From Candidatus Anderseniibacteriota bacterium (GTDB lineage: Bacteria; Patescibacteriota; Andersenbacteria; UBA10190): a stretch of DNA of 64,000 nucleotides. Every line of letters starts with the position of its first letter. Within the stretch, counting starts at the first letter, position 1. This document shows, piece after piece, positions 6,654-37,758 of this stretch. A program made the position numbers and the translations under genes. The stretch covers positions 5,106 through 69,105 of the forward strand of contig JACPWO010000001.1 in NCBI GenBank assembly GCA_016197005.1, read 5' to 3'. The notes under the pieces are model-generated. The model ran no database searches. It saw nothing but the letters and a program-made list of their open reading frames with translations, and was not told the DNA's origin.

Positions 6654-6677
6654 ATACAAAGCAGTAGTGTAGTGGGC

Positions 6678-15004: not shown

Positions 15005-15015
15005 ATCCTTGATAG

Positions 15016-21994: not shown

Positions 21995-23061
21995 GCAGAC
22001 AGAAGAATTGGCAGAGGATAGATCAGGTCAAAATACCGTTCATTAGTGGCGACGCAGCGGTCGCTACCTAGCCATTTACTAACTGTTCCGCACCAGCCCG
22101 CATCCAAGGCAACCGATTGAGTTGCTGCCACAATGAATGGCATCGTTAAGGCAGCGGCGACTACAGACATTACTAAAAAACGCGCCAACTCGTTGTGACG
22201 ACGCAAACCCTGCCACATGGCCCAGAGAAGAGCAACAAGAAAAAGTATTGCAAGGGGGCCATGTAATGTGTGAAAGAGTGTCGCTACAATACCAACCATC
22301 CGAACAATAGCATCTTGAAATGATTCAGGGTTATCATTTCCTCCCGATCCGGCGTAGTTGCTAAAAAGATCCCAACCTTTTAGCCAGCTCGCATATAAAA
22401 ATGGGGCTAGGGCCATAAGTCCACCGGCGAGTGCACTTAATGTAGCGAGCAACTTCTCTTTCCAGGTCGTTTTTGTCAGTAAAATAGCGAGGCCATACGG
22501 GATTGTTTGAACAATAATGTACAGATGTCCATTTGCGGCTAGTCCTAAAAACAACCCGGATAATCCAGCCAGCCACCACCGATGGGATCGCATGTACTGA
22601 TAAAGAGCAAAGGCAGCCAAAACTATAAAGAGAACATTAGGACCCATTTCCCACGTGACGCGGGACCAATTCACCATCCATGACGAAAATAGCGCTATAA
22701 GAAGTCCGGTGATTGCTCCTCGAATACCGGCCAATTTTTTCAGCCATATAAAAAGAACAAGTGAAGCGGCAACACTTGCCAGTGCGGGAGTTAAGCGAGC
22801 AACGAACACACTGGGACCAAAGAGAGCAAAAAAGCCAGCAGTTATGTAATGAGCGACCGCGCCAAAGTGAGCGGTGACACCTCGAAAAATAAACACATGA
22901 TCACGCAGTATTCGTAGTGCCAAGTATCCGTTGTTACCCTCATCCGTCGCAAAATTATTGGAGTAGCTAAGATTGTAGAGCCGAAACGCGGTGGTAAGTG
23001 CTAAAAGCACAAATGCAACAATAAGAATGCGTAAGCGGTAAGAGAAGGTGCTTATAGGCAT
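21706..23061 (-). CDS. GT-C-fold (ArnT/PMT_2-like) membrane glycosyltransferase; 3' end possibly disrupted
   Basis: Loop-1 motif NNFATDEGNNGY and about 11 TM helices. The last roughly 60 codons overlap the next ORF in another frame. Confidence 0.6.
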   Translation of the reverse strand: MPISTFSYRLRILIVAFVLLALTTAFRLYNLSYSNNFATDEGNNGYLALRILRDHVFIFRGVTAHFGAVAHYITAGFFALFGPSVFVARLTPALASVAASLVLFIWLKKLAGIRGAITGLLIALFSSWMVNWSRVTWEMGPNVLFIVLAAFALYQYMRSHRWWLAGLSGLFLGLAANGHLYIIVQTIPYGLAILLTKTTWKEKLLATLSALAGGLMALAPFLYASWLKGWDLFSNYAGSGGNDNPESFQDAIVRMVGIVATLFHTLHGPLAILFLVALLWAMWQGLRRHNELARFLVMSVVAAALTMPFIVAATQSVALDAGWCGTVSKWLGSDRCVATNERYFDLIYPLPILLSAWFLTRLTRKSVTTYLLLSTLVIAPLVPYTLRSVSTVSKERLEYLEPALDKLPRIRALFLIALTETMCAYGLWPDNIVFIRLKIIESSTQLVTIYF

Positions 23062-23146: not shown

Positions 23147-24598
23147 ATGTTACGTTCGACGGAAGCGAAGACAGTTATTCTCGGAGCCGGCCCGGCCGGA
23201 ATGGCGGCGGCAATGGAACTTTGGAAGAAAAAACATCCCACGGTGATTATAGAGAAAAATACTCAAGTAGGTGGATTAGCTCGAACACTTGAATTTAAGG
23301 AAGGTAACGATGTATTTCGGACGGATATTGGCCCACATAGATTTTTCAGTAAAAATCAATATCTGTACGATTTTATTGGTGACTTGCTCGGTGAGGAGTG
23401 GATAACGGTTAACCGATTAACTCGGTTTTTTATTCGCGGCAGGCTCTACTCTTATCCAATTGAATGGAAGAATGCACTCAAAAACTTGGGCATAAGCAAG
23501 TCAATCCATCTTTTACTAGATTACATGTGGGAACGATTGAAAGATGTCGTCTACGGTAAGCGCGTGCCGCGTAATTTTGAAGAATATACGGTTCGTACAT
23601 TTGGACGGACTTTAGCGGAACTAAATATGCTTAACTACACAGAAAAGATTTGGGGGCTTCCTTGCTCTGAGCTCTCGGTAGATTGGGCAGATCGCATTAA
23701 GGGACTCTCATTTTGGGCAGCAATCAAAAACACTGTATTAAAACGTTCCCATGACTCGCCGAAAACACTCGTAGACCAATTCTACTACCCAGAATTTGGT
23801 GCTGGTATGGTCTATGAAAAGATCAGAGAACGGATTAGTTTGGATATTCCATTTCTCTTTTCATCTCAGCCCACGCACATCCGACATGACGCTAAGCGAG
23901 TTACCAGTGTGACTATTACTACTCCGTCCGGGGAAGTTGAGATTGCACCCGAGACCGTTGTTACTTCAATTCCTATTGTAGACTTACTACCGCTTTTACA
24001 ACCACTTCCGCCTCCGGAAATTCTCGCTCATGCCAAAGCCCTACGACATCGATCGCAAGTATATCTTTTTATTACAGTTAATAAGAAGCAAATTTTTCCT
24101 GACCAGTGGATTTATCTGCCAGATTCCCACGTTCCGTTTGGACGAGTCTCAGAAATGAAGAACTTCAGCTCAAAGATGGCGCCTAAAAATGCGACTTCAT
24201 TGTTTATCGAATTTTTTTGCTGGGAGGGTGACAGGGTATGGGAAGCGGACGCGGAGACCCTCCTTACTATGTGCTTACCATTTTTTGAAAAATGGAAATG
24301 GCTTACACGAGAAGATATACGAAAAAGTTATATTCATCGGCAATCCAAGGTGTACCCAGTGTATGACCTTGAATATAGAGGCCACATTGATGCTATTAAA
24401 AAATATGTAGATAGTTTTTCTAATCTTTATTCCATTGGCCGGCCCGGAAGATTTAAATACAACAACCAAGATCATTCGCTTGAGATGGGAATTATGGCTG
24501 CGACAGGAATAATCAATCACACAGCTGTGGATTTTGACGCAGTTATGTCAGGTAAAGAATATATGGAGTCAGGAGCAGCACCTCTTAAGAAAAAGTAA
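23147..24598 (+). CDS. FAD/NAD(P)-binding oxidoreductase, amine-oxidase/UDP-galactopyranose-mutase-like superfamily
   Basis: N-terminal Rossmann GAGPAGMAAA, the GGLART block, and IGPHRFF (compare the UGM 'YGPHIFH' motif). At 483 aa it is longer than a canonical Glf. Confidence 0.55.
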   Translation: MLRSTEAKTVILGAGPAGMAAAMELWKKKHPTVIIEKNTQVGGLARTLEFKEGNDVFRTDIGPHRFFSKNQYLYDFIGDLLGEEWITVNRLTRFFIRGRLYSYPIEWKNALKNLGISKSIHLLLDYMWERLKDVVYGKRVPRNFEEYTVRTFGRTLAELNMLNYTEKIWGLPCSELSVDWADRIKGLSFWAAIKNTVLKRSHDSPKTLVDQFYYPEFGAGMVYEKIRERISLDIPFLFSSQPTHIRHDAKRVTSVTITTPSGEVEIAPETVVTSIPIVDLLPLLQPLPPPEILAHAKALRHRSQVYLFITVNKKQIFPDQWIYLPDSHVPFGRVSEMKNFSSKMAPKNATSLFIEFFCWEGDRVWEADAETLLTMCLPFFEKWKWLTREDIRKSYIHRQSKVYPVYDLEYRGHIDAIKKYVDSFSNLYSIGRPGRFKYNNQDHSLEMGIMAATGIINHTAVDFDAVMSGKEYMESGAAPLKKK

Positions 24599-25542
24599 TG
24601 TCGATTCTTATTACTGGCGGTGCTGGATTCATCGGATCGCACATCGCTCACCGGCTCGTCTCAGAGGGTGAAGAAGTGGTACTGGCTGATATATTTACCT
24701 CACAGGTATATCCAGCTGAGCTGAAACGACGGCGAGTTCAGGCGCTGGTGCCGGAGATGACAATCCATAATATTGATATTTGCAATGCGGAAGAAGTTGC
24801 TGAATTTATTAGTAAAATTCAGCCCTCGGTCATTATTCACCTTGCCGCCCATGCGAGTGTTACGGATAGCGTTTTGTTTCCTCGTGAATACATGGAGACG
24901 AACAGTATTGGCACTCTTAACATCGTGCGGGCGGCTACGAGGACTGGGAGTAAAGTCGTACTAGCAAGTAGTAGCACAATTTATGAGGATGTACATCATG
25001 CAGTTTCTGAGCATGAGCCGGCGCATCCGCTCTCTCCCTACGGACTAAGTAAACAATCGGCAGAACAAGTAGCACGTCTGTGGCACGATCTCTATGGTGT
25101 CTCCACAGCAATTCTTCGTCTCTTTAGTGTGTATGGCCCGTGGGGGAGGCCAGATATGGCTCCACAACTTTTTACTGAAGCTATACTGCATTCTCGGCGT
25201 TGTGCAGTCACTGTCGGTGCCGGTCGTGATTATGTGTATATTGATGATGTCGTTGAGGCGTTTCTGGCAGTAGCCATGAAGACAAGTAACTGGGAGGTAC
25301 TAAATATTGGATCAGGAGTTGTGACACCACTCACTAGTCTAGTAGAAACGATTGGTCGATCTTTGCATAAGATTCCTGAGATAACTATGTCAGTAGGACG
25401 ACCGGGTGAAATGAAAACTACGGCCGCTAATATTACTGCTGCGAATGAACACCTTGGCTGGGAGCCAACGTGGCCATTAAAAGCTGGTATAGATCAGTTA
25501 GTAAGCTGGTATGTGACGGCTATGCAGAAGCAACGATTCTAA
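24598..25542 (+). CDS. NAD-dependent sugar epimerase/dehydratase (extended SDR)
   Basis: TGGAGFIGSH, catalytic YGLSK, 314 aa. Confidence 0.75.
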   Translation: MSILITGGAGFIGSHIAHRLVSEGEEVVLADIFTSQVYPAELKRRRVQALVPEMTIHNIDICNAEEVAEFISKIQPSVIIHLAAHASVTDSVLFPREYMETNSIGTLNIVRAATRTGSKVVLASSSTIYEDVHHAVSEHEPAHPLSPYGLSKQSAEQVARLWHDLYGVSTAILRLFSVYGPWGRPDMAPQLFTEAILHSRRCAVTVGAGRDYVYIDDVVEAFLAVAMKTSNWEVLNIGSGVVTPLTSLVETIGRSLHKIPEITMSVGRPGEMKTTAANITAANEHLGWEPTWPLKAGIDQLVSWYVTAMQKQRF

Positions 25543-26885
25543 GTGAGTCTGAATGTTGTCGTTTTAAGTCCGGCTCGTTTTTGACCGCTTGAAAATCGTT
25601 TCCAGGTAATTCGTAACCCATTGAAAATAGGACCGATAATTGTGAGGGGAATATGTTCAATAAGGATATGAGCAATCCGGGTGCTGCCGACAACAAATAG
25701 CCCAGAAATAATAAATTCAACGATATAACGAGATAGAGGTATATGATTCGGCTCGTACCCAAATGTAGGATTTTGTTTTCCAAGGAATCGACGCCATTGC
25801 ATTCGTATAAATGATCCACGCTTCTTAAAGTCAATCATGTGGCTATGCATTGAAACCACTTTCTCATAAGTAACTGGAGTTAATTTAACAAGATTATGCT
25901 GTTCCATTTCTTCGAGAAGACTTTTTCCTATAGTGGAACGGGCAAGAATAACGGAATATCCACCACGCTTCTTTTCATACTCCGGCGCCCAGGCGTCACC
26001 TACTGAAATGTCAGTTAATTCATTTGTAAAATCTACTGCTAAACGAGAGCTACGCTTCGTGATAAAGAATGGAATAAGATAGTTATAATAAAATTTCTCC
26101 GCGCGCAAAATCTTACCGCCACGAAGCCTTATCTCTAAGTACCCCGGCCACTCACCAGCGCGGTAAGAAAGCGAAGTTACTTGCCCAAGCGTAGCGTTAT
26201 TGGCTCGTAGGTAGCTGTTCAGCGCACCAAATCGCATTACTGTGCCAGTGTATGGCCCTAAAATATATTTAATGCTACGCACAGAGGAATGGTTCAGCTT
26301 TTGTAGCATTCGAATAGCTGCGACTTGATCCGGTAAGCCGACAAATGCAAGTGGACCCTCTTCTTTTCTTAATTTTTCCAAAATAGTTAGAGGTGCCGAT
26401 TCGGTATAAATGCTCCCGGCCGATGATAGTATTTCTTCGCGGGAACGAGCAATAATGGGCTCAACGAGATAAGGAATATCTTTTCGCAATCGTAGAACAA
26501 CAGCCCCGGTAATGCGTTTTGTTTGTAAAAGATATAGTAATGTCTGCGTCAGCACACCGCCGGATGCGGCTTCGATTCGCACGCTATCATCCAGAGCATA
26601 ACCAACGTACGCCTGCTTGAATTCACCAGTAAGCCAAGAAGAAGGATGTTTGCCGAAAATAAATGTATTCAAATTTGGATACGGCAGTCCCCGGTCCGGT
26701 AAAGCTTCCCAAATTGCCGGATCAAGATTGAGTTGTTCTTCCGGAACGGTCGGTTGTGGGGTTAGGTCGTGAGGCGGGTTTTTGAGTCGCAGTTGACCAC
26801 GTGACAACCCTACTTCTAAACCCGTGTGGCTTGAAAGTCCTTCCTTAATGATATTGTCTTGGATTTTTTGCCAGGTTTTGTCCAT
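25539..26885 (-). CDS. FrhB/FdhB-like (coenzyme F420 hydrogenase beta-subunit family) protein
   Basis: AASGGVLTQTLLYLLQTKRITGAVV matches the FrhB N-domain signature. No Fe-S Cys clusters were seen. The start is placed at the internal ATG (MDKTWQ…) to limit overlap; a GTG at 26933 is also possible. Confidence 0.4.
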   Translation of the reverse strand: MDKTWQKIQDNIIKEGLSSHTGLEVGLSRGQLRLKNPPHDLTPQPTVPEEQLNLDPAIWEALPDRGLPYPNLNTFIFGKHPSSWLTGEFKQAYVGYALDDSVRIEAASGGVLTQTLLYLLQTKRITGAVVLRLRKDIPYLVEPIIARSREEILSSAGSIYTESAPLTILEKLRKEEGPLAFVGLPDQVAAIRMLQKLNHSSVRSIKYILGPYTGTVMRFGALNSYLRANNATLGQVTSLSYRAGEWPGYLEIRLRGGKILRAEKFYYNYLIPFFITKRSSRLAVDFTNELTDISVGDAWAPEYEKKRGGYSVILARSTIGKSLLEEMEQHNLVKLTPVTYEKVVSMHSHMIDFKKRGSFIRMQWRRFLGKQNPTFGYEPNHIPLSRYIVEFIISGLFVVGSTRIAHILIEHIPLTIIGPIFNGLRITWKRFSSGQKRAGLKTTTFRLT

Positions 26886-27603
26886 CTTTTCGATAAATAA
26901 ATATTCTACGTAATGCGGTATGCCGACGAACACCTTCCCCGACTATTGCTTCTAATTTTTCACCCAATGCTAGTAACCACGGTGGACCTGCCGGTATAAA
27001 AACAGTAGTTTTCTCCTTAAGTTTAGTGCAGGCAGCTCCGGCAAAGGTCGATGTGATAAGACGCCTTTGTACCATTCGATGCGGGCCTTCAGAATGATGT
27101 AATCCTAGGACGGGCGCAAGTAAATGGATCGGTTCCCAGGCAACGGTTGGCGTTGTCAAGACGATAGCTCCTCCAGGTTTTGTAACACGTACTAGTTCTT
27201 GTATATATTTTCGCGGCCAAGGTACGTGTTCTAACGTTTCGTAACTTAACGTTACATCAAAGGTATTGTCAGCAACAGGAAGTGGAAGATTAGTAAATTG
27301 TTGGACAACCGCTGGAACATTCGCTGCCTGTAACCGTTTAGTCGCAACATCCTTAAAAAATTGAGAAACAACCAAACAGGTAAAAGAAAGGTTTTTATCT
27401 TTGTTGCGTTCATAGAAAAATTGCGAACCGATTCCTGTGCGAGCATCAATGTCTAACACATGAGCGCCAGACGGAATAACAAAAAGTGGAGCGCTATCTG
27501 TAAACCGCCGCTCGTAGGACGCCGTTTTGGCATTTATTTCGTCATAACCAACCGTTTTATCCCAATGTTGGGCCACATCTGCCAAACTCCAATTACGCTT
27601 CAT
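26845..27603 (-). CDS. class I SAM-dependent methyltransferase
   Basis: VLDIDARTGIGS…TLEHVPWP…VTKPGGAIVLTTP. Confidence 0.65.
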   Translation of the reverse strand: MKRNWSLADVAQHWDKTVGYDEINAKTASYERRFTDSAPLFVIPSGAHVLDIDARTGIGSQFFYERNKDKNLSFTCLVVSQFFKDVATKRLQAANVPAVVQQFTNLPLPVADNTFDVTLSYETLEHVPWPRKYIQELVRVTKPGGAIVLTTPTVAWEPIHLLAPVLGLHHSEGPHRMVQRRLITSTFAGAACTKLKEKTTVFIPAGPPWLLALGEKLEAIVGEGVRRHTALRRIFIYRKDGQNLAKNPRQYH

Positions 27604-27621
27604 GTGTGTTACTATACGCGC

Positions 27622-29196
27622 ATGTTAGGGTTGCGCGCCAGACTCAGAGATCCTGGTTTTTGGATAGATTTTTTAGTCGTTGCTTTACTGGGGAACTTCG
27701 GAATTATTTTTCGGACAATGCTTGTGCAGAACCGAATGCGAATGCCGGCAGGAGACGCCTTTAATTTTATCAATGGTGCGACTGAGTTGCTGTATGGCAA
27801 GTATCCACCTCAAGAGAAACGGCCCCCATTTTTTTCCTTCCTGATAGCCATTCTGGACTCGTTTATTCAAGATCCTATCGATACTTCGCACATCATTATA
27901 GTAATTAGCGGAGTTTTGGGGATTATATTTATGTACTTTATTGGACGTTATTTTGGTGTTTACCGACCAGTCATGGCTGGATTTTCTTTTCTTGCTCTTT
28001 TTGACCCGCTTCTTGCCCTTTATGGAGTTCGTCCACTTTCGCAAGGGCTATTTTTTGCGTTACTGACGCTAACAGTACTCCTGGCCCTTCATATAAAAAC
28101 ATCCCGCTGGTACTTGGCTGCTATGGCTTTATCCTTTACGGCATTGGCGCTTACTCGGCAGGAAGGTGTTCTCATATCTGCGGTTGTTTGGGCTCTCCTG
28201 TTTTTAAAGTTACCGTGGAAGAAAGTACTTCTCGTCGCGCTAATGAGTTGCGTATTTGTAGCTCCTTGGTTTGTGGTGATTGCGCGCTCAACCGGCTCAC
28301 CTTTTAAATTTCCCGGCAGTGAAGCGTACGTAGAAGAATTCGCGAGCGGGGAGAGGGGAACAAAGGATCCTCGGGTAGTGTTGGCAGGGATTGCGGAAAT
28401 AAGTATGGAAACGTGGGCGATTGCCTGGAATTCTTCTGTTCTTGTTACTCCGGAAGGAGAGGAAAGTGCTGACAATACACCTGACGCGATTGCTGCGTTT
28501 TTGGTAGCGTTGTTGGCAATTATTGGGCTCGGCTGGATGACTGTTCGCCGCCCAAAAGATATGGCAATATTTTTTGCTGCTTTTGCTCTCATTGTAGTAA
28601 TTGCTGCCTGGTACCGGGCGTCGGGAAAATATGCGTCGCCATTTATCAGTACCTGGTACATTTGTGCCGCGGCCGGGCTTACCGCCGTCAGCGAAATAGT
28701 ACGGCGGCTTTACTCAGGGGCAGCCTTTAGCGGTCGCCTTGGAGCATATATTGCCACGATAGCTATCGTTTGGCCCCTGGCCCCCGCTCTCGCTATAAGT
28801 GGCACCAGCTATATCGTGTCAGAGAGAGGAATGAACTGGGCTCGGGTGCAAGCAGTCCGTTATGTGAGAACATTTGAAGCTCCCGTACTAATACCCGACT
28901 TTACCCTATTGAGCCGGTCATACTTTGGGAAAGTTGGCGAAAAAACCGAACCACCTCACCTGGGGATATATCTAATAAATGTTTCTGAGCAATCCGTGGA
29001 GGAACAGAGGACTTATATTATTTCGAAAGGAGCACAATACATTATTGACGATGGAACGGAAGGTATTTTGAAGCTCACGCAATACTTGCAAGAACGCAAA
29101 GAAATTACTTTAGAAAAACTATTTGTTTCGTATCTTGAGGGTGACCAGACGGGTCAACTTATATACGTCTATCGGTTTTCTCCGCGGTGGCGCTAG
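27622..29196 (+). CDS. GT-C-fold (PMT_2-like) membrane glycosyltransferase
   Basis: The start is moved to ATG 27622 (MLGLRARL…), which avoids overlap with the divergent gene. It is multi-TM and carries the FTALALTRQEGVL block shared with the 2448 protein. Confidence 0.55.
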   Translation: MLGLRARLRDPGFWIDFLVVALLGNFGIIFRTMLVQNRMRMPAGDAFNFINGATELLYGKYPPQEKRPPFFSFLIAILDSFIQDPIDTSHIIIVISGVLGIIFMYFIGRYFGVYRPVMAGFSFLALFDPLLALYGVRPLSQGLFFALLTLTVLLALHIKTSRWYLAAMALSFTALALTRQEGVLISAVVWALLFLKLPWKKVLLVALMSCVFVAPWFVVIARSTGSPFKFPGSEAYVEEFASGERGTKDPRVVLAGIAEISMETWAIAWNSSVLVTPEGEESADNTPDAIAAFLVALLAIIGLGWMTVRRPKDMAIFFAAFALIVVIAAWYRASGKYASPFISTWYICAAAGLTAVSEIVRRLYSGAAFSGRLGAYIATIAIVWPLAPALAISGTSYIVSERGMNWARVQAVRYVRTFEAPVLIPDFTLLSRSYFGKVGEKTEPPHLGIYLINVSEQSVEEQRTYIISKGAQYIIDDGTEGILKLTQYLQERKEITLEKLFVSYLEGDQTGQLIYVYRFSPRWR

Positions 29197-30391
29197 TGGC
29201 GTGCGCTTTAGGAACTCGTTTTCGTTTCTGAGTCTTTGTAGATACGAATTTTGGTAAAAACTTTTTATCAAAATCTGCAAAGGCTTGGATGATCCGGGTA
29301 AAATCCTCTTTTGTCAGATCTGGGTAAATAGGTAAGCTTAAAATCTCTTCGGCAACGCGATCAGTCACTGGTAGACTAACAGTGTAGGGTTCAAAGAGAG
29401 GATGTTTAGTTAAGGGCATGTAATGTACACCGGTACTAATGAGTCGATGAGCCAAAAACTGGCGGAGCGGCTCGCGCTCAGGAACACGGATGACGAAATT
29501 GTGCTGTGATGTAACGGAATCAGGTCGCAGCTGTAAAAGTTTTACCCAAGGGTATTTTTTTAATTCATTACGGTACGCACTCGCAATTTCACGACGTTTG
29601 GCATTGCCGGCTTCGAGCTTAGCCAATTGGATCAACCCCAATGCGGACGAAATGTCATTTGGGTGATATTTATATCCCACTTCTTTAATTTCGTAGTACC
29701 AATCGTATCGGGCATCATTTCGGTTTTCGCGAGCCCAGGTATCCTTATCGATACCTACCCAACGTAGTCGTTTCAACATAAGAGCCTCTTCCTCGCTACG
29801 TGGAATAATCATGCCGCCATCACCCATGGCTAGATTTTTTACGGCATGAAAGGAGTAACAAGTAAGATTGCCGTGAGTACCAATCCGTTTTCCTTGGTAA
29901 CTACTGCCACAAGCATGGGCGGCATCTTCAATAACTGGAATATTAGCCTCGGTAGCAATTGTCATAAGCCTTTCCATGTCAGCCGGGGTTCCACCGTAAT
30001 GGACTGGGATAATGGCCCGCGTTCTCATTGTTATTTTTTGCCGTACGTCTTCCGGATCTAGTGTTAAAGTATCCTCTTCAACATCGGCAAAAACAGGAGT
30101 CGCACCCACATATAACGGAGCGACCGCGGTTGCTGCGAACGTCATAGCGGGGACAATAACCTCATCGCCAGGTTTTAACCCCAAAGCAATACAAGCCAGG
30201 TGAAGCGCAGCGGTTCCGGAATTAAGTGAGACAACGTGGGGCACACCAATATAGTCGGCAAAAGCGCGTTCAAAAGCGGCAGTTTGTGGACCTAACCCGA
30301 TCCAGCCAGATTTTAGGACATCGGTAACAGCAGCAATTTCTTTGTCGTCAAATGATGGGCGAAAGACAGGGATAAGTGAGTGGTCAGACAT
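29159..30391 (-). CDS. DegT/DnrJ/EryC1/StrS-family PLP-dependent sugar aminotransferase
   Basis: FDDKEIAAV…SGW; PVHYGG; CYSFHAVKNLAMGDGGMI (the lysine site). A basic C-terminal tail (…KRKRVPKAH…) of about 35 aa. Confidence 0.75.
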   Translation of the reverse strand: MSDHSLIPVFRPSFDDKEIAAVTDVLKSGWIGLGPQTAAFERAFADYIGVPHVVSLNSGTAALHLACIALGLKPGDEVIVPAMTFAATAVAPLYVGATPVFADVEEDTLTLDPEDVRQKITMRTRAIIPVHYGGTPADMERLMTIATEANIPVIEDAAHACGSSYQGKRIGTHGNLTCYSFHAVKNLAMGDGGMIIPRSEEEALMLKRLRWVGIDKDTWARENRNDARYDWYYEIKEVGYKYHPNDISSALGLIQLAKLEAGNAKRREIASAYRNELKKYPWVKLLQLRPDSVTSQHNFVIRVPEREPLRQFLAHRLISTGVHYMPLTKHPLFEPYTVSLPVTDRVAEEILSLPIYPDLTKEDFTRIIQAFADFDKKFLPKFVSTKTQKRKRVPKAHATSATAEKTDRRI

Positions 30392-30400
30392 ACAGAAATA

Positions 30401-31612
30401 CTAAGCGAAATAATGGCGTTGAGCGAGTCGGTACGCCTTAGTCATACGAGTAGCCACTGCATCCCAAGAATAGTCAGCTACAGCTTTGCTACGCACCTGT
30501 TGGGAAAGTCGCTCTATCTCATCCGGACTCTTTAGGAGCCGAGCCATAGTATTTGCAAGTCCAGTAACATCACCAATTTCTTTTACGTATACGCCAAGAT
30601 CACCTAAGATATCGTGATTTACGACCGTATCAAAAGCAACCGTCGGCAGTCCGCAGGCCATGTAGTTATATATTTTGCCATTAGCTTCGGTTGCCGACCG
30701 CTTAGGAGAAACCGCGATATTGCCCAGGGCAAGGTAGCGCGGTGCTTCGTCGTAAGGGATTTTACCGGTGACTAATACACTTTTTTCAACGCCAAGTTCT
30801 TTCACTCGAGCTCGGTACTTATCTTCATTCGGATAACCCATAAGCAAAAGGAATGCATCGGGGACTTCTTTGATTACGGCGGGCCAGGCTGCTACCAAAT
30901 CATCAGTACCTTGATGCTCAGCAAGGCCACCTAAATACACAATGACTTTGGCATTTTCTGGGATACCTAATTGACGTTGAAGTGCTTTATCTGGCTCTTG
31001 CGGGATAAATGTATTGGTATTTACGCCATCATATGTGAGTACGACACGATCAGCTCCTACTTTAAAAAGATTTATGAGTTCATTTCGCATATCGGTGGAT
31101 TGAGTTACTACCATATCGGCCCGCTGATCAATCCATCGTTCAAAGCCATACCACAAATCCTGTAACCACTTGGCCTTGGCCAAACTAAATTTGTAAGATA
31201 AAAGTTCTCCGGTAAGACTACCTTGTAAATCAAACAATAATGGCGCTCGATAAAATTGCTGGACAAGCCAACCAATAACGCATCCTTCATGAAGATGACC
31301 GTGTATGACGTCAGGTTTAAACTCACGAGCTACCGCGTAGGCCTTGAAAGCCAAAAGCGGGTCCAAATAAAATTTATGCAGCGTTGGACCAGCTTCTAAT
31401 TTTGTGTACCAAGGGAAGAAACCAATACGATCAGTCTTTATGTAGGGAACATCTCGCCCCAAACCATACGTGACCAGGCGAACTTCATATCCTTGACGCT
31501 GGAGTGCCCAAATCTCCTCAGCAATCTGTACATGACAACCCCGGTCGGCAAAGAATGGTGTGGGAGCAATCATCAGAATACGACGTGGTTCGGCAAGAGC
31601 GGGTTTCGTCAT
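30401..31612 (-). CDS. GT4-family glycosyltransferase (GT-B fold)
   Basis: RILMIAPTPFFADRGCHVQ N-domain; C-domain E-x7-E region (…YNYMACGLPTVAFD). Confidence 0.7.
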   Translation of the reverse strand: MTKPALAEPRRILMIAPTPFFADRGCHVQIAEEIWALQRQGYEVRLVTYGLGRDVPYIKTDRIGFFPWYTKLEAGPTLHKFYLDPLLAFKAYAVAREFKPDVIHGHLHEGCVIGWLVQQFYRAPLLFDLQGSLTGELLSYKFSLAKAKWLQDLWYGFERWIDQRADMVVTQSTDMRNELINLFKVGADRVVLTYDGVNTNTFIPQEPDKALQRQLGIPENAKVIVYLGGLAEHQGTDDLVAAWPAVIKEVPDAFLLLMGYPNEDKYRARVKELGVEKSVLVTGKIPYDEAPRYLALGNIAVSPKRSATEANGKIYNYMACGLPTVAFDTVVNHDILGDLGVYVKEIGDVTGLANTMARLLKSPDEIERLSQQVRSKAVADYSWDAVATRMTKAYRLAQRHYFA

Positions 31613-31653
31613 ATTTCACATCGTATGGTACCTACGTGCTTCTCGTAAAGCAG

Positions 31654-32853
31654 CTATGAACTAGTAACAATATCTAAAATTGTTTTAATAATATGGCCTA
31701 CCTGTTTATCGGTAAGAGCAGGATAATTCGGCAAATTTACAAGCTCCCGCACAATTGTTGATCCGTTGGGAAATTTTTCTGGTGTGTCTTTGCGGTAGAG
31801 GGGTAGTTCGGGCACCAGATAATCAAATGTCACTCCTGATTCTATCCCAGCGGCACGCAGTTTTTCCCGCACTTGCAGTTTATCTCGGTTAGGAACACGA
31901 AGAGCATAGTGCGAGAGGTGGCTATTGTCGAAAATAGTCATGGGTATAAGCTCCTTGTGTCCTGAGAAGGCACGTGTGTACTGCTGCGAGATATGTTGTC
32001 GTCGGTGAAGAAATAGTTCGGTTCGCGGTAGTTGTCGCAGTCCAAGAGCAGCCTGAGAAGGAGAGAACTCTACCATAGCGTCGGAGGGAAACGTTCCTTC
32101 GTCAAGACTTCTGGTATCAAGTTGATGTCGCAGTAAGCGACTATACCGTAAACGATCTATAACTGAATACAGGTAGGGGCCAAAGGCACCAATAAGAGCG
32201 GCGAGTTGAAGCAAAAACACTATCCTCTCTCGGATGTTTGATGCACGGAGATTTTTGCTTTGCCATTCACGCAGTTTATTTACTAATTCGAAATCATCAG
32301 TTGCCACTACACCACCTCGAATTGTAGACAAGATTTTATTTGAACCAAGACTGTATACTGTCGCAACGGTCAGTTTAGGGTTTGGGCTTTTCCAGGCTGG
32401 GTGCATGCTGAGCGACGCATCCTCAATTACAACCATTGGTCGTGACAATTCGTTAAGTTCGTCCAAGACTAATCGGTTGCCATACATATGAGTAGGAACA
32501 ATAGCCGCAGTTCGGTCATCAACTTTTTCAAGAAGAGTGGATACTGGTGCATTAAAATCCTTAGCTCGTACATCAATAAAGTGTGACTTAAGGTGAGCAC
32601 GAGTAATAGCGTGAGCAACGACCGAACACGTATATGCTGGTAGTACGACAAACTGGCCTGGTGTCGTGGTTACTTCAAGGAGAGCCTGAATAGCTACTCG
32701 GCAGTATGGAAACGTAACGGCGAATGTGGTGCCAACTTTTCTTGCAAATGCCCGTTCAAACTTCCCTACAGCCGTCGGTGACGCAAATGCAGCCGATATA
32801 AAATCCAGCCCAGTATGTGAGGGACGATTTTTTGATATAAGGGTTTTCATCAC
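31654..32853 (-). CDS. DegT/DnrJ-like PLP-dependent aminotransferase (second copy, divergent)
   Basis: VVLPAYTCSVVAHAI…IVPTHMYG…VIEDASLSMH…YSLGSNKIL…GGVV follows the DegT block order, including the Lys. Confidence 0.55.
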   Translation of the reverse strand: MMKTLISKNRPSHTGLDFISAAFASPTAVGKFERAFARKVGTTFAVTFPYCRVAIQALLEVTTTPGQFVVLPAYTCSVVAHAITRAHLKSHFIDVRAKDFNAPVSTLLEKVDDRTAAIVPTHMYGNRLVLDELNELSRPMVVIEDASLSMHPAWKSPNPKLTVATVYSLGSNKILSTIRGGVVATDDFELVNKLREWQSKNLRASNIRERIVFLLQLAALIGAFGPYLYSVIDRLRYSRLLRHQLDTRSLDEGTFPSDAMVEFSPSQAALGLRQLPRTELFLHRRQHISQQYTRAFSGHKELIPMTIFDNSHLSHYALRVPNRDKLQVREKLRAAGIESGVTFDYLVPELPLYRKDTPEKFPNGSTIVRELVNLPNYPALTDKQVGHIIKTILDIVTSS

Positions 32854-33824
32854 TTATTCCGCTGCAGAATATATTCCGTTCGACCGCTTTTCTTAAAGAA
32901 TTTAGCCAGGGCCGCAATTGGCGTTAGTACTGCCAGTAGAAATGGATTCTTGATATCACAAAAGGGAACTAGGAATCGAGCATGATCAAGTGCCCAGTAA
33001 CGCAGACCCCAAATCCAGTTATTGGGATTAAGTTCATGCTCAACTTCTTTAACAGTAAACCCATATTTTTTCGCATACGCAGCCGTGGTTTGGGGTGTGA
33101 GGTAAATCATGTGTCTTGGAATTTCCCAACCATGCCAGTACCGCTTCAAAATAGCCGCTTCCCAGGAGTCATTGTTAGGAATTTGCAGTACAAAGTAACC
33201 ACCAGGACGAATAATACGAGCGAGTTTTTCAAAAGCTTTCGCGGGAGAAGGTAGATGATCGAGCGTATACTTCATAATGACGCAATCGTATAGAGTATCT
33301 TCAGGAAACGCCTCAAAGGATTCCACGCGAACATTAAGTTTTAAGACATTACGGGCGTATTCAATGCTGCCGGGATCAGTATCAATACCAGATAGTTCCC
33401 AGTCTCCAAGCGTTTTAAGCATCGCTAGGAACCCACCCCAGGAGCAGCCAACATCTACTATTTTTTCTTTCGGGCCGACGTACCTGAGAACTTTTAATGC
33501 TTTTCGGCGATCAAAAAATGCTTTTACTCGTGCCAGGCCACCCGTTACTTGGCGAGGGTTGAAAGGGTTGTAGTTCGGTGGATAATACACAAAAATATCC
33601 TGATCGGTTGGCCGGGGGTCAGGAAACATGACTCCGCAATTGTCACATATCGCTACGTTGAATGTATCAGGCCAATCCAGGTCATAGTCACGTATCTTTT
33701 CGATATAATAGTGCCGCTTGGTAGATCCGCAAAAGTCACAAGGAACATGGATAACCTGCACCGGTGAGTGAGCTGGGCTAGTTAAAGTGGATGAAGAGGA
33801 AGCGTTAATCAACATGTTCGGCAA
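32850..33824 (-). CDS. class I SAM-dependent methyltransferase with N-terminal Cys4 zinc-ribbon
   Basis: CDFCGS…CDNCGV, then VDVGCSWGGF, then FVLQIPN. Confidence 0.65.
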   Translation of the reverse strand: MPNMLINASSSSTLTSPAHSPVQVIHVPCDFCGSTKRHYYIEKIRDYDLDWPDTFNVAICDNCGVMFPDPRPTDQDIFVYYPPNYNPFNPRQVTGGLARVKAFFDRRKALKVLRYVGPKEKIVDVGCSWGGFLAMLKTLGDWELSGIDTDPGSIEYARNVLKLNVRVESFEAFPEDTLYDCVIMKYTLDHLPSPAKAFEKLARIIRPGGYFVLQIPNNDSWEAAILKRYWHGWEIPRHMIYLTPQTTAAYAKKYGFTVKEVEHELNPNNWIWGLRYWALDHARFLVPFCDIKNPFLLAVLTPIAALAKFFKKSGRTEYILQRNK

Positions 33825-34539
33825 TTACAAATAATATGCTGCCCTGATTTGTCCACGAAAACAAATCATCAATGAACAATCCAATATAGGCCAAACGAGA
33901 AGCGAGGCTGGCCGACGTTTTTTTGGTTTGGTTGTTCCAGAGTGTATCCTGATTTACCCAGGTCATCAGACGATACCAAATCCGATACAGGGGCCATCCC
34001 CAAGTTTTCATTACAACCGGTCGTAAATGAGCACTCTGGAGTAAAGCAGCCATATCTGTTCGCTCATACCGACGTTTGTTGCCAGCTTCTTTATCTTTTC
34101 GTGTCCAGTATTTCTTTCGATGAGGAGTAATAATAAAAAGTCGACCATCCTTCTCAAGCATTGCGGCCATATTCTTTATGGCCATAACATCGTCAGACAT
34201 TTCTTCAAGAGCGTTCGTACAAAAAATCATTGAGAATTTTTCCGGTAGGGAATCATTCTCAATATTCAGAAGTTGCCAACGGATTTCTGGAGAAAATCCA
34301 GACGCTTTATCTAGCGCAAGTTGGGATATGTCCGTTCCGGTCATCTCGTATGTAGTTGGAAGGGCTCGAAGTAGTTCCCCAGTCCCACACGCAATATCGA
34401 GTACTTTATTACCTGGTCCGTACGTCCGAACGAGTTTAAGGAAAATACGAAGTTTGTGGCGAAAGCTAGGACCACTCGCAAAAAGGGTGTTTTCTGGTCG
34501 CTTCCACAGAGTGTCCCAAGCTGATTTCACATTTGTCAT
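33805..34539 (-). CDS. class I SAM-dependent methyltransferase
   Basis: VLDIACGTGELL…IFCTNALEEM…DGRLFIITP. The start is taken at the internal Met (MTNVKSAWDTLW…) to remove the 76 nt overlap with the divergent 34614 gene. The 34689 start is possible instead. Confidence 0.6.
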   Translation of the reverse strand: MTNVKSAWDTLWKRPENTLFASGPSFRHKLRIFLKLVRTYGPGNKVLDIACGTGELLRALPTTYEMTGTDISQLALDKASGFSPEIRWQLLNIENDSLPEKFSMIFCTNALEEMSDDVMAIKNMAAMLEKDGRLFIITPHRKKYWTRKDKEAGNKRRYERTDMAALLQSAHLRPVVMKTWGWPLYRIWYRLMTWVNQDTLWNNQTKKTSASLASRLAYIGLFIDDLFSWTNQGSILFVIAEHVD

Positions 34540-34613
34540 GGGCTGCACTGTACCACAATATAGCCGTAGCTGCTGCATTGACGGACCGACGAACGTAATG
34601 AGAGAATTCTCGC

Positions 34614-36128
34614 ATGAGTCACGAAAAACTCGTCCTGCGAGTTGTTGTCCTAGCCGTATTCCTACCTCGTCTTCTTTTTCCTGACGCATTTACTCAATTA
34701 GATGAGCAGCGGTGGGTTTTTAGAGCTAATGACGCTATGGATGCATTTGTGACTGGAGATTTCTCTAACACTGGTTCACTTGGATATCCAGCTGTAACTC
34801 ACATGGCCACAATTGCCCCGGTTATCGTTATGTACCGCACCATCGCTGGACTTGAAGGTCACACAGATTCTTGGCCACTGGAACACCAACATTACGTAAT
34901 TGTGTGGGCTCGCCTAGTAATCGGTTTGGTGACGGGATTTATAAGTCTCCTGTTATATTATCTTCTCCGTAAATCACCCCTGTTTGATGGAAATAGTTGG
35001 ATGATTGGTGCCTTAACAATTGCGATTGCGAATGAACCCTGGTTACTCGGCATGAGTCGCATAATGATGATGGACGCCTATATTAGTTTTTTTATTATTC
35101 TGTCTCTTGTCGCTGGTCTTGTGTCTCGCTGGAGAAGCAATCACCAATTCCTTATTCTTTCCGGTGTGGCGTTTGGGCTCGCATTTATAACCAAGAGTAC
35201 CGCTTCATTTTTTGGACCCTTCCTGCTTATCCCGTTTATCGCTGGTTCACTTAGGGAGTCTAGTAAACGCATCGCGTGGTGGTGTGGAATAGGAGCTTTA
35301 ACGATTTTTGTTTTTTGGCCGGCTATGTGGGTGCATCCAATCGAGCGCATTGGTGAGTTGTTATTCTGGGACAGTACTCATGCGTTAGAATTGCGTGAAC
35401 CACTTTACTGGCCTGGATGGCACCCGCCTTTCGCTTTCCTAGTGTTAGCGGTACCGAGTTTCATCGGTCTTATTGCATATATTGGTCTACGCATGCATGA
35501 CTTCTATCGTCGACACCATGTTTCGGGAATGCTTTTAGGTGATCTCGCTTTCGGTATGGCACTCGCTTTTCAACTTATTATGGCCTACGTGGTAGCTGAT
35601 CGTTCTCGCTGGATTCTTCCAGCGATCGCGCTTTTTGCCATCCCGGGAGCAATCGGGCTGCTTCGGCTATTACGACTGTGGCTGGCTCCAAAAACAGCCG
35701 CACTCGTACTTATCGTCGCGTCTGTTATCACTGTCGTGTACTGGCATCCTTATCCAACATTAGCAGTGAATCCACTTTTTTATACTGAATCGGCTACATG
35801 GCAATTGGGAATGGGCGAGGGATCAAGACAAGTGGCTGAGTATCTAGCACAGTTACCACCCAATTCGTCGGTAGCAACTAAGATCCCGAGCCTCATTGAT
35901 CGTTACTTAACCTACTCACATGTCGAAGTTACTCGATTCCCTCAATCTAATGATTTTTCTGAATTGCCTGATAATACAACACATCTCGTTTTGCCCATGA
36001 GTAGGAATCGTATTTTGTTTGAGGAAAATATTGGCGACGTATACGAATGGATGGACGAGCACACCCCGGAATTCGTCGTTAATCTTCGTGGAATACCGTT
36101 ATACGGTATTTATGGCTACGAGCGTTAA
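34614..36128 (+). CDS. GT-C-fold glycosyltransferase (DE-motif) with conserved C-terminal domain family
   Basis: Loop-1 motif QLDEQRW; many TM helices; C-terminal GMGEGSRQ…HTPEFVVNLRGIPLYGIY, a divergent member of the shared domain. Confidence 0.6.
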   Translation: MSHEKLVLRVVVLAVFLPRLLFPDAFTQLDEQRWVFRANDAMDAFVTGDFSNTGSLGYPAVTHMATIAPVIVMYRTIAGLEGHTDSWPLEHQHYVIVWARLVIGLVTGFISLLLYYLLRKSPLFDGNSWMIGALTIAIANEPWLLGMSRIMMMDAYISFFIILSLVAGLVSRWRSNHQFLILSGVAFGLAFITKSTASFFGPFLLIPFIAGSLRESSKRIAWWCGIGALTIFVFWPAMWVHPIERIGELLFWDSTHALELREPLYWPGWHPPFAFLVLAVPSFIGLIAYIGLRMHDFYRRHHVSGMLLGDLAFGMALAFQLIMAYVVADRSRWILPAIALFAIPGAIGLLRLLRLWLAPKTAALVLIVASVITVVYWHPYPTLAVNPLFYTESATWQLGMGEGSRQVAEYLAQLPPNSSVATKIPSLIDRYLTYSHVEVTRFPQSNDFSELPDNTTHLVLPMSRNRILFEENIGDVYEWMDEHTPEFVVNLRGIPLYGIYGYER

Positions 36129-36631: not shown

Positions 36632-37758
36632 TAGATGTTAGACGAGCTCCCATCGGTTACCCCGGGAGTTACTCGGTATGCCGCTTCATATCTTGCCGTA
36701 ATTGTTGGCCAATTAAATAACTTTGCTCGTTCCCGCCCTTTGTTGCCCAGCTCTTCTCGTAAAGTTTTGTTATTTATGAGCTTTAATACGGCCTCTCGAA
36801 TTTGTTGTGGATTATTTGGCTCAACTAGGAGGGCAGTATTCTCTACAACCTCAGGTAACGCACTAACATTCGTTGTAATAATAGCGAGGCCAGCACTCAT
36901 TGCTTCAAGTAGAACCACCCCAAACGACTCATTCTGAGACGTAAAGATAAAAATAGAAGAGGTTTCGTACAGATAATGGAGCTGATCATTTTGAACGAAG
37001 CCGGTAAAGTTCACACGAGGCTTTATATTCTCGGCCTGTTTCTTTAGTTGTGGTAAATATGGACCATCTCCAGCGACAATGATTTCCCAGTCCAGATCCA
37101 TATCTTTTATTGCCTCTAGAAAATATTGCACTCCCTTGCGCCGAAAGATACGACTAACAATAAGAATCTTGCGTTCTCGGATGGAAGGAGCAATCAGTTC
37201 CATCCGAAAGCCATTTGGGATAACGGTTACAGGAATATTCGCAAATGTTTGAATGTGATGCTTTAGATACTCTGAAGGCGCAATCAATGTATCAATGCTA
37301 CGGACAACTTTTCGCCACATAGGATGGAGTAATCGATGAAGAAAACGAAATCGGTCGGGATTGTATAACGGTATGTCGGAACCGTGAGCGGTTACTACTA
37401 ATGGCACTTTTGTTCGCCATTTCAGAACAGCACCGACAACGCCAGTCGGGAAAATGAAATGAGCGTGAATAAGGTCATACTTATGTTTCCTCATTCGTTG
37501 CAAACAGAACGGTATAGCTGAGGCAACGTATGTTGCCATTTCGTAGGGGTAACAAATTTCGTTTTTGCGACGCAAGGAAAGTACACGAAATATGTTAATT
37601 CCATCTACCACTTCAAATCGCTTAGTGCCCCGCGCATGCATCGTAACCACATCCACTACATGACCACGACGTACTAATTCGCGACACAGTTCAAAACTTA
37701 CAGGAGCACCGCCACCCCCAATAGGCGGAAACTCGTAATTCAGCATAAGTATTCTCAT
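36631..37758 (-). CDS. GT4-family glycosyltransferase
   Basis: MRILMLNYEFPPIGGGG…; C-domain …ESFGVVLLEAMSAGLAIITT. Confidence 0.7.
   Translation of the reverse strand: MRILMLNYEFPPIGGGGAPVSFELCRELVRRGHVVDVVTMHARGTKRFEVVDGINIFRVLSLRRKNEICYPYEMATYVASAIPFCLQRMRKHKYDLIHAHFIFPTGVVGAVLKWRTKVPLVVTAHGSDIPLYNPDRFRFLHRLLHPMWRKVVRSIDTLIAPSEYLKHHIQTFANIPVTVIPNGFRMELIAPSIRERKILIVSRIFRRKGVQYFLEAIKDMDLDWEIIVAGDGPYLPQLKKQAENIKPRVNFTGFVQNDQLHYLYETSSIFIFTSQNESFGVVLLEAMSAGLAIITTNVSALPEVVENTALLVEPNNPQQIREAVLKLINNKTLREELGNKGRERAKLFNWPTITARYEAAYRVTPGVTDGSSSNI

Follow-up and report, generated by a model that had tools for sequence, protein, structure and literature searches.

Separately conserved glycan-building gene modules, one of them with a cluster-free FrhB-like protein, lie side by side in an Andersenbacteria glycosylation island

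A stretch of 64,000 nucleotides from a Candidatus Anderseniibacteriota bacterium (assembly GCA_016197005.1, contig JACPWO010000001.1, positions 5,106 to 69,105; hereafter "the window", meaning the whole 64 kb analysed) contains at 23147-34689 a block of 11.5 kb with genes for a flavoprotein, a short-chain dehydrogenase/reductase (SDR), an FrhB-like protein, two DegT aminotransferases, a family 4 glycosyltransferase (GT4), a candidate membrane glycosyltransferase of the C fold class (GT-C) and several S-adenosylmethionine (SAM) methyltransferases. Do these genes form one pathway, or do they serve several purposes? A first-pass annotation of the sequence had read them as a single route to an amino- and methyl-modified deoxy sugar. 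Profile searches (Pfam and NCBIfam against the main open reading frames (ORFs) of the window) recover the flavoprotein, the SDR, the FrhB-like protein, both DegT proteins and the GT4 as described there, and the family matches bear out the general idea of sugar- and glycan-tailoring genes. The joint pathway is not supported. The block reads instead as a juxtaposition of three independently conserved glycan-building modules, each with its own proposed product or role, and we consider the chances of this reading to be evenly balanced.

Module A consists of the flavoprotein, which resembles UDP-galactopyranose mutase (UGM), and the SDR; module B centres on the FrhB-like protein, for which FRH is used as shorthand, and the methyltransferase MT1; module C comprises the aminotransferases DegT1 and DegT2, the GT4, the methyltransferases MTzn and MT3 and a convergent GT-C-like gene (Table 1). 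Comparison of gene neighbourhoods shows separate patterns of conservation for the three modules across related loci. None of the 77 other species that carry FRH has a UGM-like gene or the SDR near it, and a gene of the DegT cluster occurs near FRH in only five of the 77, at a distance of 2.8-8 kb. The mutase-like and SDR genes adjoin in all three other contexts examined (loci L089, L090 and L091), and since the pair holds together there while keeping away from FRH in the 77 species, module A is an independent conserved two-gene unit. Loci L087 and L088 keep module C and are missing FRH and MT1, so conservation of module C does not depend on module B. MT1 and FRH do occur beside the DegT operon in L086, the closest relative.

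These patterns bear directly on the alternative of one cytoplasmic pathway, in which FRH, the flavoprotein, the SDR, the DegT proteins and the methyltransferases would act in turn on a nucleoside diphosphate (NDP) sugar to yield an amino- and methyl-modified deoxy sugar. We regard it as unlikely. Beside the separate conservation of the three gene groups, a scan of the main ORFs of the 64 kb, which leaves aside 35 ORFs of at least 100 amino acids, most of them internal or antisense, turned up neither a nucleotidyltransferase nor a 4,6-dehydratase; the SDR does not have the acidic residue that dehydratases use in catalysis; and FRH is constantly accompanied by a polyprenyl-phosphate-sugar GT2, a flippase-like protein and a GT-C. 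Yet all families present are known from NDP-sugar tailoring, FRH and MT1 adjoin the DegT operon in the window as well as in L086, L089 has a fragment of an FrhB C-terminal domain beside its UGM-like and SDR genes, and in L091 the UGM-like/SDR pair lies near an NTP_transferase and a further SDR. No deoxysugar pathway of the RmlA/RmlB type was recognised among the main ORFs of the window: none of them matches NTP_transferase, and the sole SDR is devoid of the T-D/E-E motif. The deoxy sugar of the first-pass annotation is not supported, and the SDR, cast there as a pathway partner of the aminotransferases, is instead the conserved partner of the UGM-like mutase. Nothing was found that links the block to flagellin, pilin or S-layer glycans, which had been named as parallels.

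The flavoprotein of module A scores 412 bits against NF005548 (cut-off 389), a model named just "hypothetical protein", and its best solved relatives are UGMs of the eukaryote type: the enzyme of Trypanosoma cruzi (4dsg, E 3e-30 over residues 7-456) and that of Aspergillus fumigatus (3ute, about 1e-27, a full-length match). The flavin adenine dinucleotide (FAD) Rossmann motif, the His loop and the substrate-binding Arg and Tyr residues expected of the UGM-like family are all present. The motifs GAGPAG, GPH (H64), R183, W321/Y323 (WxYxP), PFGR (R333), YP (Y403) and GRPGRFKY..NQDHS align with both enzymes, and H64, R183, W321, Y323, R333, Y403, Y438, N440, D442 and H443 are invariant in 13 UGM-like homologues of about 50% identity from bins of the candidate phyla radiation (CPR), Planctomycetota, Nanoarchaeia, Diapherotrites and Methanomicrobiales. 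A review lists structures of alanine variants of the A. fumigatus enzyme at His63, Phe66, Tyr104, Tyr317 and Arg327 (PMC7662398); the residues of the flavoprotein that align with the His loop, F66, Y104, Y317 and R327 are conserved. The bacterial-type UGM model TIGR00031 reaches 54 bits against 303.75, so the flavoprotein is not a bacterial Glf equivalog. The protein is a predicted nucleotide-sugar pyranose/furanose mutase. A DprE1/E2-like reading of the flavoprotein and the SDR was set aside, because every UGM catalytic or substrate residue checked is conserved.

The start codon of the SDR gene overlaps the stop codon of the mutase gene (ATGA), and the protein has the motifs GxxGxxG, SSSTIY, YxxxK and VYGPWGRPDMA. 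SSSTIY is an epimerase-type motif without an acidic residue where 4,6-dehydratases and decarboxylases have one, and TIGR01181 gives 162.9 bits against 365.1. The best structures (5u4q, 4zrm and 6zl6) place the protein closest to UDP-glucuronate and UDP-glucose 4-epimerases; VYGPWGRPDMA is common to the SDR, 5u4q and 6zl6, the latter two of which we take to be of the UDP-glucuronate 4-epimerase type. An Arn-like pathway combining the SDR with DegT1 was considered and rejected: the SDR lacks the decarboxylase Glu, and its conserved partner is the UGM-like gene.

While the two proteins fall clearly into these families, the product is a matter of likelihood: module A most likely makes a galacto-configured furanose nucleotide sugar, for which the SDR would supply a galacto-configured UDP-sugar and the UGM-type flavin mutase would contract the ring. 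Candidates are galactofuranose (Galf) or a uronic or N-acetyl analogue. The window protein shares with the eukaryote-type UGMs full-length homology and the C-terminal motif GRxGxxxY..NQDHS, but its identity to them is about 25-30% (estimated from the printed alignment), its family is prokaryotic (CPR, archaea, Planctomycetota), and the constant partner of that family is an SDR of the UDP-glucuronate-4-epimerase type. Because of this partner, the substrate may not be UDP-galactose. Public annotation calls members of the family only "FAD-dependent oxidoreductase" or "protoporphyrinogen oxidase"; the pair suggests prokaryotic furanose sugars produced by a eukaryote-type mutase family that now carries oxidase or oxidoreductase names. 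In L090 a PMT_2 gene follows the mutase/SDR pair, and L091 stems from a Methanomicrobiales-labelled bin. L089 holds the closest UGM-like relative. Its UGM-like and SDR genes have directly 3' of them, in the same orientation, a 167-aa FrhB_FdhB_C fragment (L089:6050-6553), perhaps an FRH that has decayed or been rearranged.

FRH, the core of module B, belongs to the FrhB family by domains and fold. Its PF04422 and PF04432 scores exceed the cut-offs, and a Foldseek search with its AlphaFold2 (AF2) model (pLDDT 87, pTM 0.90) finds 21 structures at E <=0.001, every one of them FrhB-type and the best of them 8riu_B (E 4.9e-26, TM 0.80). The chain 8riu_B is the zeta subunit of an F420-reducing carbon monoxide dehydrogenase; in this protein, as in FrhB, the reductase domain contains FAD and one [4Fe-4S] cluster (PMC11493965). 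The ligands of the FrhB cluster, Cys104, Cys134, Cys192 and Cys195, have been described as fully conserved (PMC3591093). None of them is retained in the window protein, which has D186, T213, S280 and A283 at the four positions. Among the 78 family members compared (77 species and the window), the first position is D or E in all 78, the second T, M or V in 77, and the third S or T in 61 or C in 17; Cys occurs at the fourth in none (0/78). The first-pass annotation had noted the lack of Cys motifs in FRH, and the protein in fact contains no cysteine at all, the sole such case among the 78. An N-terminal CxxCxxC...CP motif, the remnant of a ferredoxin domain, is found in 61 of the 78 and is missing from the window protein and many Peribacteria.

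Other parts of FRH have been kept. ASGGVLT and SIY are near-invariant, with SGG..T, S.Y and DISVGD common to FrhB relatives, and the family has invariant blocks of its own (GLPDQVA, KFYYNYLIPF, DFTNELTDISVGDAW and MHxHMxDFKKRG). A conserved C-terminal extension of about 100 residues is helical, partly hydrophobic and basic, with one hydrophobic segment near the C-terminus, and as such fits an association with the membrane. FRH thus resembles the known FrhB modules (FrhB 4omf/3zfs, 8riu_B, FwdI 8rja_E, Fsr-N 7np8, HCAR 5dqr) in fold, in its PF04422 and PF04432 domains, in the motifs SGG..T, S.Y and DISxGD and in the N-terminal ferredoxin-like remnant. It departs from them in the family-wide substitution of the four residues that bind the flavin-proximal [4Fe-4S] cluster, in its hydrophobic and basic extension, and in being fused or adjacent to a methyltransferase, with no hydrogenase or dehydrogenase partner in the contexts surveyed. 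One might suppose from the loss of the ligands throughout the family, of the N-terminal Cys motif in 17 of the 78 members and of every Cys in the window protein that FRH is a catalytically dead, cofactor-free scaffold, which anchors or regulates a methyltransferase or GT2 at the membrane. Such a role is improbable in view of the very high conservation (about 50% identity between CPR and Chloroflexota, 43% to Cyanobacteria), the long invariant motifs KFYYNYLIPF, DFTNELTDISVGDAW and MHxHMxDFKKRG, and the retention of motifs shared with FAD-binding FrhB relatives.

The genomic company of FRH is that of lipid-carrier glycosylation. Over 1,100 proteins are homologous to FRH at about 50% identity, and relatives occur in 247 GTDB species representatives from Peribacteria/Peregrinibacteria, Chloroflexota, Cyanobacteria, Bacteroidota, Acidobacteriota, Gemmatimonadota and Verrucomicrobiota; one carrier, the cyanobacterium Halomicronema sp. 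CCY15110, is in culture. From 80 fetched FRH loci all ORFs were clustered; the following counts concern genes within 5 kb of FRH in those 48 loci whose flanks both measure at least 4 kb. A GT2 and a GT-C-like protein each occur in 41 of the 48, a protein with an LPG_synthase_TM or "flippase-like" domain in 33, an MT1-type methyltransferase in 32, and a soluble 545-aa protein, here termed c6, in 12. Either the methyltransferase or c6 is present in 43 loci, and both are found in a single one. Profile searches of Pfam, NCBIfam and PDB gave no match for c6. It lies directly 3' of FRH in Cyanobacteria, Bacteroidota, Acidobacteriota and Verrucomicrobiota, in near mutual exclusion with the methyltransferase (for example L073:5324-6967; also L058, L061, L068, L070-L072, L075-L078 and L080-L085). 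A bin labelled Candidatus Nanoarchaeia (L013, JANQND010000002.1) likewise has an FRH locus in which a GT2, a flippase-like gene and a GT-C-like gene lie no more than 5 kb away, which could reflect horizontal transfer or an error of binning or labelling.

This survey speaks against a place for FRH in energy metabolism, as a redox subunit linked to F420 or ferredoxin that came to lie in a glycan island by chance, an idea prompted by the Pfam and NCBIfam names, which derive from the F420 hydrogenase/dehydrogenase beta subunit, and by the structural neighbours, all of which are such enzymes. The recurring partners in the 48 loci are GT2, flippase-like protein, methyltransferase, GT-C-like protein and c6; within these annotated contexts, where many neighbouring ORFs are unannotated, no recurring partner outside glycan-assembly families was seen, and hydrogenases, dehydrogenases and reductases were not among the partners. 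FRH also has no proximal cluster, and the NCBIfam scores are far below the cut-offs (FrhB 58.6 bits against 331.5; PRK09325 72.7 against 269). Some of the lineages that carry it, such as CPR and Bacteroidota, are not known to make F420, and we hold the idea to be very improbable. An association of FrhB-like genes with pyruvyl transferases does not apply here: no pyruvyl transferase is present in the window or in the FRH cassettes. A search of PLSDB plasmids with FRH gave no match, and a literature search found no description of the FRH family or its cassette.

MT1 is 51-52% identical to the methyltransferases that adjoin or are fused with FRH elsewhere. Its gene overlaps that of FRH by 41 nt in a different frame, exactly where CPR relatives encode an in-frame fusion of the two. 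Fusions occur in 19 loci, 13 in the order FRH-methyltransferase (Chloroflexota) and six in the order methyltransferase-FRH (CPR), and in 31 further loci the methyltransferase is the adjacent gene on the same strand. The junction of MT1 and FRH in the window (26845-26885) contains A-runs (GAAAAG, CAAAAAAT). Upstream, the divergent starts of MT1 and the GT-C-like gene of module C are separated by 18 nt (27603-27622), and consequently the promoters of both must lie in coding sequence.

A pair of this kind might also modify a lipid, by adding a methyl group to a double bond of a polyprenyl or acyl chain and reducing the product with a flavin. Tuberculostearic acid synthesis, which employs a methyltransferase and an FAD reductase, provides the model. 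A SAM methyltransferase fused to a flavoprotein-fold domain would suit such a scheme, as would the membrane-associating C-terminus of FRH, the CMAS-family Pfam matches on the methyltransferase domain of some fusions (P0040, P0051) and the fact that FrhB-family enzymes such as its structural neighbour HCAR act on hydrophobic tetrapyrrole substituents. The scheme is nevertheless doubtful at best. In 12 of the 48 loci FRH is paired with c6, usually in loci without a methyltransferase, and hence FRH cannot simply be the reductase for a methyltransferase product. Moreover, sugar-transfer genes form the core of the cassette in every case, the CMAS matches are an overlap among generic class-I methyltransferase models, and CPR bacteria are generally not known to make their own lipids.

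The window also holds a GT2 of the cassette type, which lies outside the block. Its best NCBIfam models are AglJ, DPhHxTase (dolichyl-phosphate hexose transferase), PpgS and ArnC, none of which reaches its cut-off; it has two C-terminal hydrophobic segments and is 47-50% identical over its full length to GT2s found 0-300 bp from FRH in Peribacteria. This identity is at the level of that of FRH and MT1 to their relatives, and by sequence the protein is the orthologue of the FRH-adjacent GT2s. The cassette GT2s of related loci similarly resemble AglJ, dolichyl-phosphate hexose transferase, PpgS and ArnC, which load sugars onto polyprenyl phosphate. Cassette GT2, methyltransferase, FRH and GT-C candidates are therefore all present in the window. 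The first-pass annotation had assigned FRH to a tailoring step; its specific links are with the methyltransferase next to it and with a cassette of GT2, flippase-like and GT-C genes.

Three-component systems for periplasmic glycosylation offer the closest comparison. In these systems auxiliary cytoplasmic enzymes, such as an SDR epimerase or DprE1/E2, edit the undecaprenyl-phosphate-linked sugar; examples are GtrA/GtrB/Gtr*, ArnC/D/E/F/T, CsbB/GtcA/YfhO and the pentofuranose systems of Citrobacter youngae with their SDR epimerase (PMC11127046). FRH cassettes likewise combine a GT-C and a flippase candidate with a polyprenyl-phosphate GT2 that has membrane segments at its C-terminus, and the lipid-linked sugar could be edited before flipping, as by ArnD, DprE1/E2 and ORF13. 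They differ in their auxiliaries, a SAM methyltransferase (or c6 in its place) and an FrhB-fold protein, neither of which has been described in those systems, and in the flippase candidate, which in related loci is an LPG_synthase_TM protein (MprF-flippase-like) and not GtrA, SMR or MATE. The window copy has the GT2 and candidates for the GT-C (at 21706-23061 and 27622-29196), whereas a dedicated flippase is missing: no LPG_synthase_TM gene lies nearby, and the only flippases in the window are of the MOP type.

The best reading, by analogy, makes module B the part of a Gtr/Arn-like three-component system in which a lipid-linked sugar would be tailored. The GT2 would load a sugar onto polyprenyl phosphate; the methyltransferase and FRH would tailor it at the cytoplasmic face of the membrane, through a methylation and a flavin-dependent step, most likely a dehydrogenation or other hydride transfer; and the tailored sugar would then be flipped and transferred by the GT-C. 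Our best guess places the flavin-dependent step upstream of the methylation. The FRH step is probably independent of methylation, since FRH also occurs with c6 in place of the methyltransferase. The substrate and chemistry proposed are modelled on ArnD, DprE1/E2 and the SDR epimerase of the pentofuranose systems. DprE1/DprE2, the decaprenyl-phospho-ribose 2'-epimerase, is a flavoprotein that acts on a polyprenyl-phosphate sugar and feeds GT-C transferases. It is a functional analogue in concept only, as its fold is unrelated and DprE1 belongs to the vanillyl-alcohol-oxidase family.

Going one step further, we tentatively propose, though with rather less than even confidence, that FRH represents an unrecognised class of cluster-free, membrane-associated flavoenzymes, which together with a methyltransferase or c6 tailor polyprenyl-phosphate sugars in at least 247 species of CPR and other phyla. 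If so, the FrhB fold would gain its first function without F420 or iron-sulfur clusters, the GT-C three-component scheme would have a four- to five-component version, and the methyltransferase/FRH pair would extend the known chemistry of such editing and imply that many uncultured lineages bear a modified surface sugar not seen before. GT-C lipid-carrier systems drive the diversity of surface antigens, and few editors of lipid-linked sugars are known: ArnD, DprE1/E2 and one SDR epimerase.

Module C is formed by five co-directional, tightly packed genes (MT3, MTzn, DegT2, GT4 and DegT1) that converge on the GT-C-like gene. The same order, methyltransferase, MTzn (not in every locus), DegT2, GT4 and DegT1, followed by the convergent GT-C-like gene, is found in L086, L087 and L088. 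DegT1 is closest, by sequence, to the 4-aminotransferases ArnB and PseC: structures of ArnB are its best relatives (E 1e-80), and the lysine of the SFHAVK motif is present. It shares with ArnB/PseC the DegT fold, the lysine that binds pyridoxal phosphate (PLP) and the best matches, yet scores below both equivalog cut-offs (PseC 330 bits against 423.5; ArnB NF008658 324.5 against 631), and the window encodes neither an ArnA-like decarboxylase/formyltransferase nor a PseB-like dehydratase. By score and by the missing ArnA partner, DegT1 is thus no ArnB proper. DegT2 is of a rare lineage, in which about 10 homologues reach >=42% identity; it retains the PLP-binding Lys and Asp (SNK and EDAS motifs). 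Its residues ~205-230 form a hydrophobic insert, RERIVFLLQLAALIGAFGPYLYSVI, between the two domains, unusual for a soluble aminotransferase.

MTzn carries the N-terminal zinc ribbon that had been noted for one of the methyltransferases. The CxxC...CxxC cysteines (C26, C29, C57 and C60) are invariant in 12 of 12 aligned members, and in a search of 1.84 billion representative proteins most homologues, which are about 300 aa long, align from query residues 22-26, the start of the ribbon. The public gene call of 259 aa (L001:18253-19032) begins 3' of the ribbon and is too short, because the homologues begin at the ribbon and the four Cys are invariant. MTzn is not a TylC3-like member of the Methyltransf_13/14 families, with no match to PF08421 or PF08484 at E <=0.01; its ribbon belongs to a different, large family of ~300-aa methyltransferases. 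Homologues of MTzn inside FRH loci are without the ribbon. MT3, which has homologues upstream of DegT2 in L086-L088, gives a weak hint of N-methylation: it exceeds the cut-off of NodS PF05401 (27.5 bits against 24), a match overlapped by stronger generic methyltransferase matches, while the NCBIfam NodS model gives 22.8 against 300. The public call for MT3 is 244 aa long, and homologues measure 215-254 aa.

Of the four methyltransferases announced for the block, three (MT1, MTzn and MT3) lie within it and a fourth does not; the nearest others are at 19550-20266 and 41535-42203, and the former may be the one that was meant. It overlaps the start of the cassette GT2 gene. The three block methyltransferases match only generic class-I SAM methyltransferase families of Pfam, save for the NodS match of MT3. 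They do not turn out to be rRNA or ubiquinone methyltransferases, since the UbiE, UbiG and MenG models give 19-36 bits against 103-420 and FtsJ, the sole rRNA-type match, 22.1 against 24.1. The GT-C assignment of the module C membrane protein comes from its topology and a profile-profile comparison with PMT_2-positive paralogues (hhalign probability 98.7%, E 1.6e-16). Pfam gives no match and Agl23 just 17.5 bits; against hidden Markov models (HMMs) of the cassette GT-C clusters the similarity is weak (E 6e-6 to cluster c5).

The conservation of module C is an observation; its product would be an amino sugar that the module both makes and installs. ArnB-like DegT1 would introduce a 4-amino group, DegT2 a second amination, and MT3 and MTzn would add methyl groups, possibly on nitrogen. 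An amino- and methyl-modified sugar as envisaged at the outset is plausible for module C, given its ArnB/PseC-like DegT1 and the NodS threshold reached by MT3.

Several points weigh against three modules with the roles outlined above. The modules could still cooperate on one glycan, and the window revealed no enzyme for the keto-sugar substrate of the DegT proteins. For module A, the nearest solved relatives of the SDR are of the uronic-acid 4-epimerase type, and UDP-Galf may be the wrong sugar. For module B, flavin binding by FRH is deduced from retained motifs only, and the CxxCxxC motif in 61 of 78 members may be a trace of an ancestral role in electron transfer, for which the model offers no explanation. 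The alternation of FRH partners between methyltransferase and c6 means that its chemistry need not involve methylation. The AF2 model of a fused methyltransferase-FRH protein (pTM 0.70, pLDDT 73) gives no confident inter-domain geometry. In the window, the cassette GT2 lies 4.4 kb from FRH with other genes between, and dedicated scans found no LPG_synthase_TM homologue, no GtrA-like gene and no small multi-transmembrane ORF. Overall, the proposed module products and chemistry derive from sequence and gene context.

Table 1. Coordinates of the modules and of other features in the 64-kb window (letters in brackets give the module)
Feature	Coordinates	Strand	Matches and remarks
GT-C-like protein	611-2488		topology only
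GT-C-like protein	2448-4712		topology only
GT-C-like protein	4734-6164		family match
GT-C-like protein	6612-8624		family match
DUF11/DUF7507 repeat protein	8732-9973		N-terminal hydrophobic segment
GT-C-like protein, YfhO type	10012-12816		family match
GT-C-like protein	12806-15049		family match
GT-C-like protein	15557-17971		family match
GT-C-like protein	17968-19461		family match
SAM methyltransferase outside the block	19550-20266	+	Methyltransf_11 67.6 bits; NCBIfam far below cut-offs
Cassette-type GT2 (B), outside the block	20259-21131	+	PF00535 110.6 bits
GT-C (PMT_2), divergent from module A	21706-23061	-	PMT_2 46.9 bits; 6 hydrophobic segments
UGM-like flavoprotein (A)	23147-24598	+	NF005548, NAD_binding_8, Amino_oxidase, weak GLF
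Extended SDR, 4-epimerase type (A)	24598-25542	+	PF01370 182 bits
FrhB-like protein, FRH (B)	25539-26885	-	PF04422 60 bits, PF04432 76.2 bits
SAM methyltransferase MT1 (B)	26845-27603	-	Methyltransf_11 50.8 bits
GT-C-like polytopic membrane protein (C)	27622-29196	+	~9 hydrophobic segments; profile-profile comparison
DegT1 aminotransferase (C)	29159-30391	-	PF01041 384 bits
GT4 (C)	30401-31612	-	Glyco_transf_4, Glycos_transf_1; kept between two DegT genes in L086-L088
DegT2, divergent DegT aminotransferase (C)	31654-32850	-	PF01041 152 bits
MTzn, class-I SAM methyltransferase with zinc ribbon (C)	32850-33815	-	Methyltransf_23 76.6 bits
MT3, class-I SAM methyltransferase (C)	33805-34539	-	Methyltransf_25 47 bits; longest ORF to 34689
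GT-C-like protein	34614-36128		family match
GT-C-like protein	37755-40043		family match
GT-C-like protein	40049-41581		family match
Methyltransferase outside the block	41535-42203		
GT-C-like protein	42271-44283		topology only
GT9 (heptosyltransferase family)	49488-50582		
CDP-glycerol glycerophosphotransferase-like	53131-54309		
GT9 (heptosyltransferase family)	55014-56093		
MOP-type (MurJ/Wzx-like) flippase	57185-58735		
MOP-type (MurJ/Wzx-like) flippase	60670-62124		
GT-C-like protein	62143-63966		topology only

The ORFs under study were confirmed at the positions assigned to them in the first pass, although the longest-ORF starts are too long for several genes; public calls give 26885, 27622 and 34539 as the probable starts of FRH, the GT-C-like gene of module C and MT3, respectively. 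The SDR is encoded identically on a 492-kb contig (JACOTL010000006.1) of GCA_016178385.1, a Candidatus Andersenbacteria assembly, on which the gene order agrees with the window and the public gene calls are near-identical to the ORFs. According to the public taxonomy record, Candidatus Andersenbacteria is a member of the Patescibacteria/Parcubacteria group.

Profile scans show the whole window to be a glycosylation island. Ten membrane proteins match PMT_2, PMT or YfhO families of GT-C enzymes, one more joins them by profile-profile comparison, and four further large polytopic proteins are without a family match. The resulting 11-15 GT-C-like proteins between 611 and 63966 are an unusually dense set of glycosyltransferases dependent on lipid carriers for a small CPR genome; they point to a very elaborate extracytoplasmic glycosylation in CPR bacteria, the envelopes of which are almost unstudied. 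About 10 GT4 genes, four GT2 genes and two GT9 genes were counted, along with a polysaccharide deacetylase, a CDP-glycerol glycerophosphotransferase-like gene, a DUF11 surface-repeat protein and two MOP-type flippases. The GT9 pair, the glycerophosphotransferase-like gene and the YfhO-type GT-C suggest that the target of glycosylation may be a secondary wall polymer, teichoic-acid-like or of another kind. The DUF11/DUF7507 repeat protein is possibly a surface protein and a candidate glycosylation substrate within the island.

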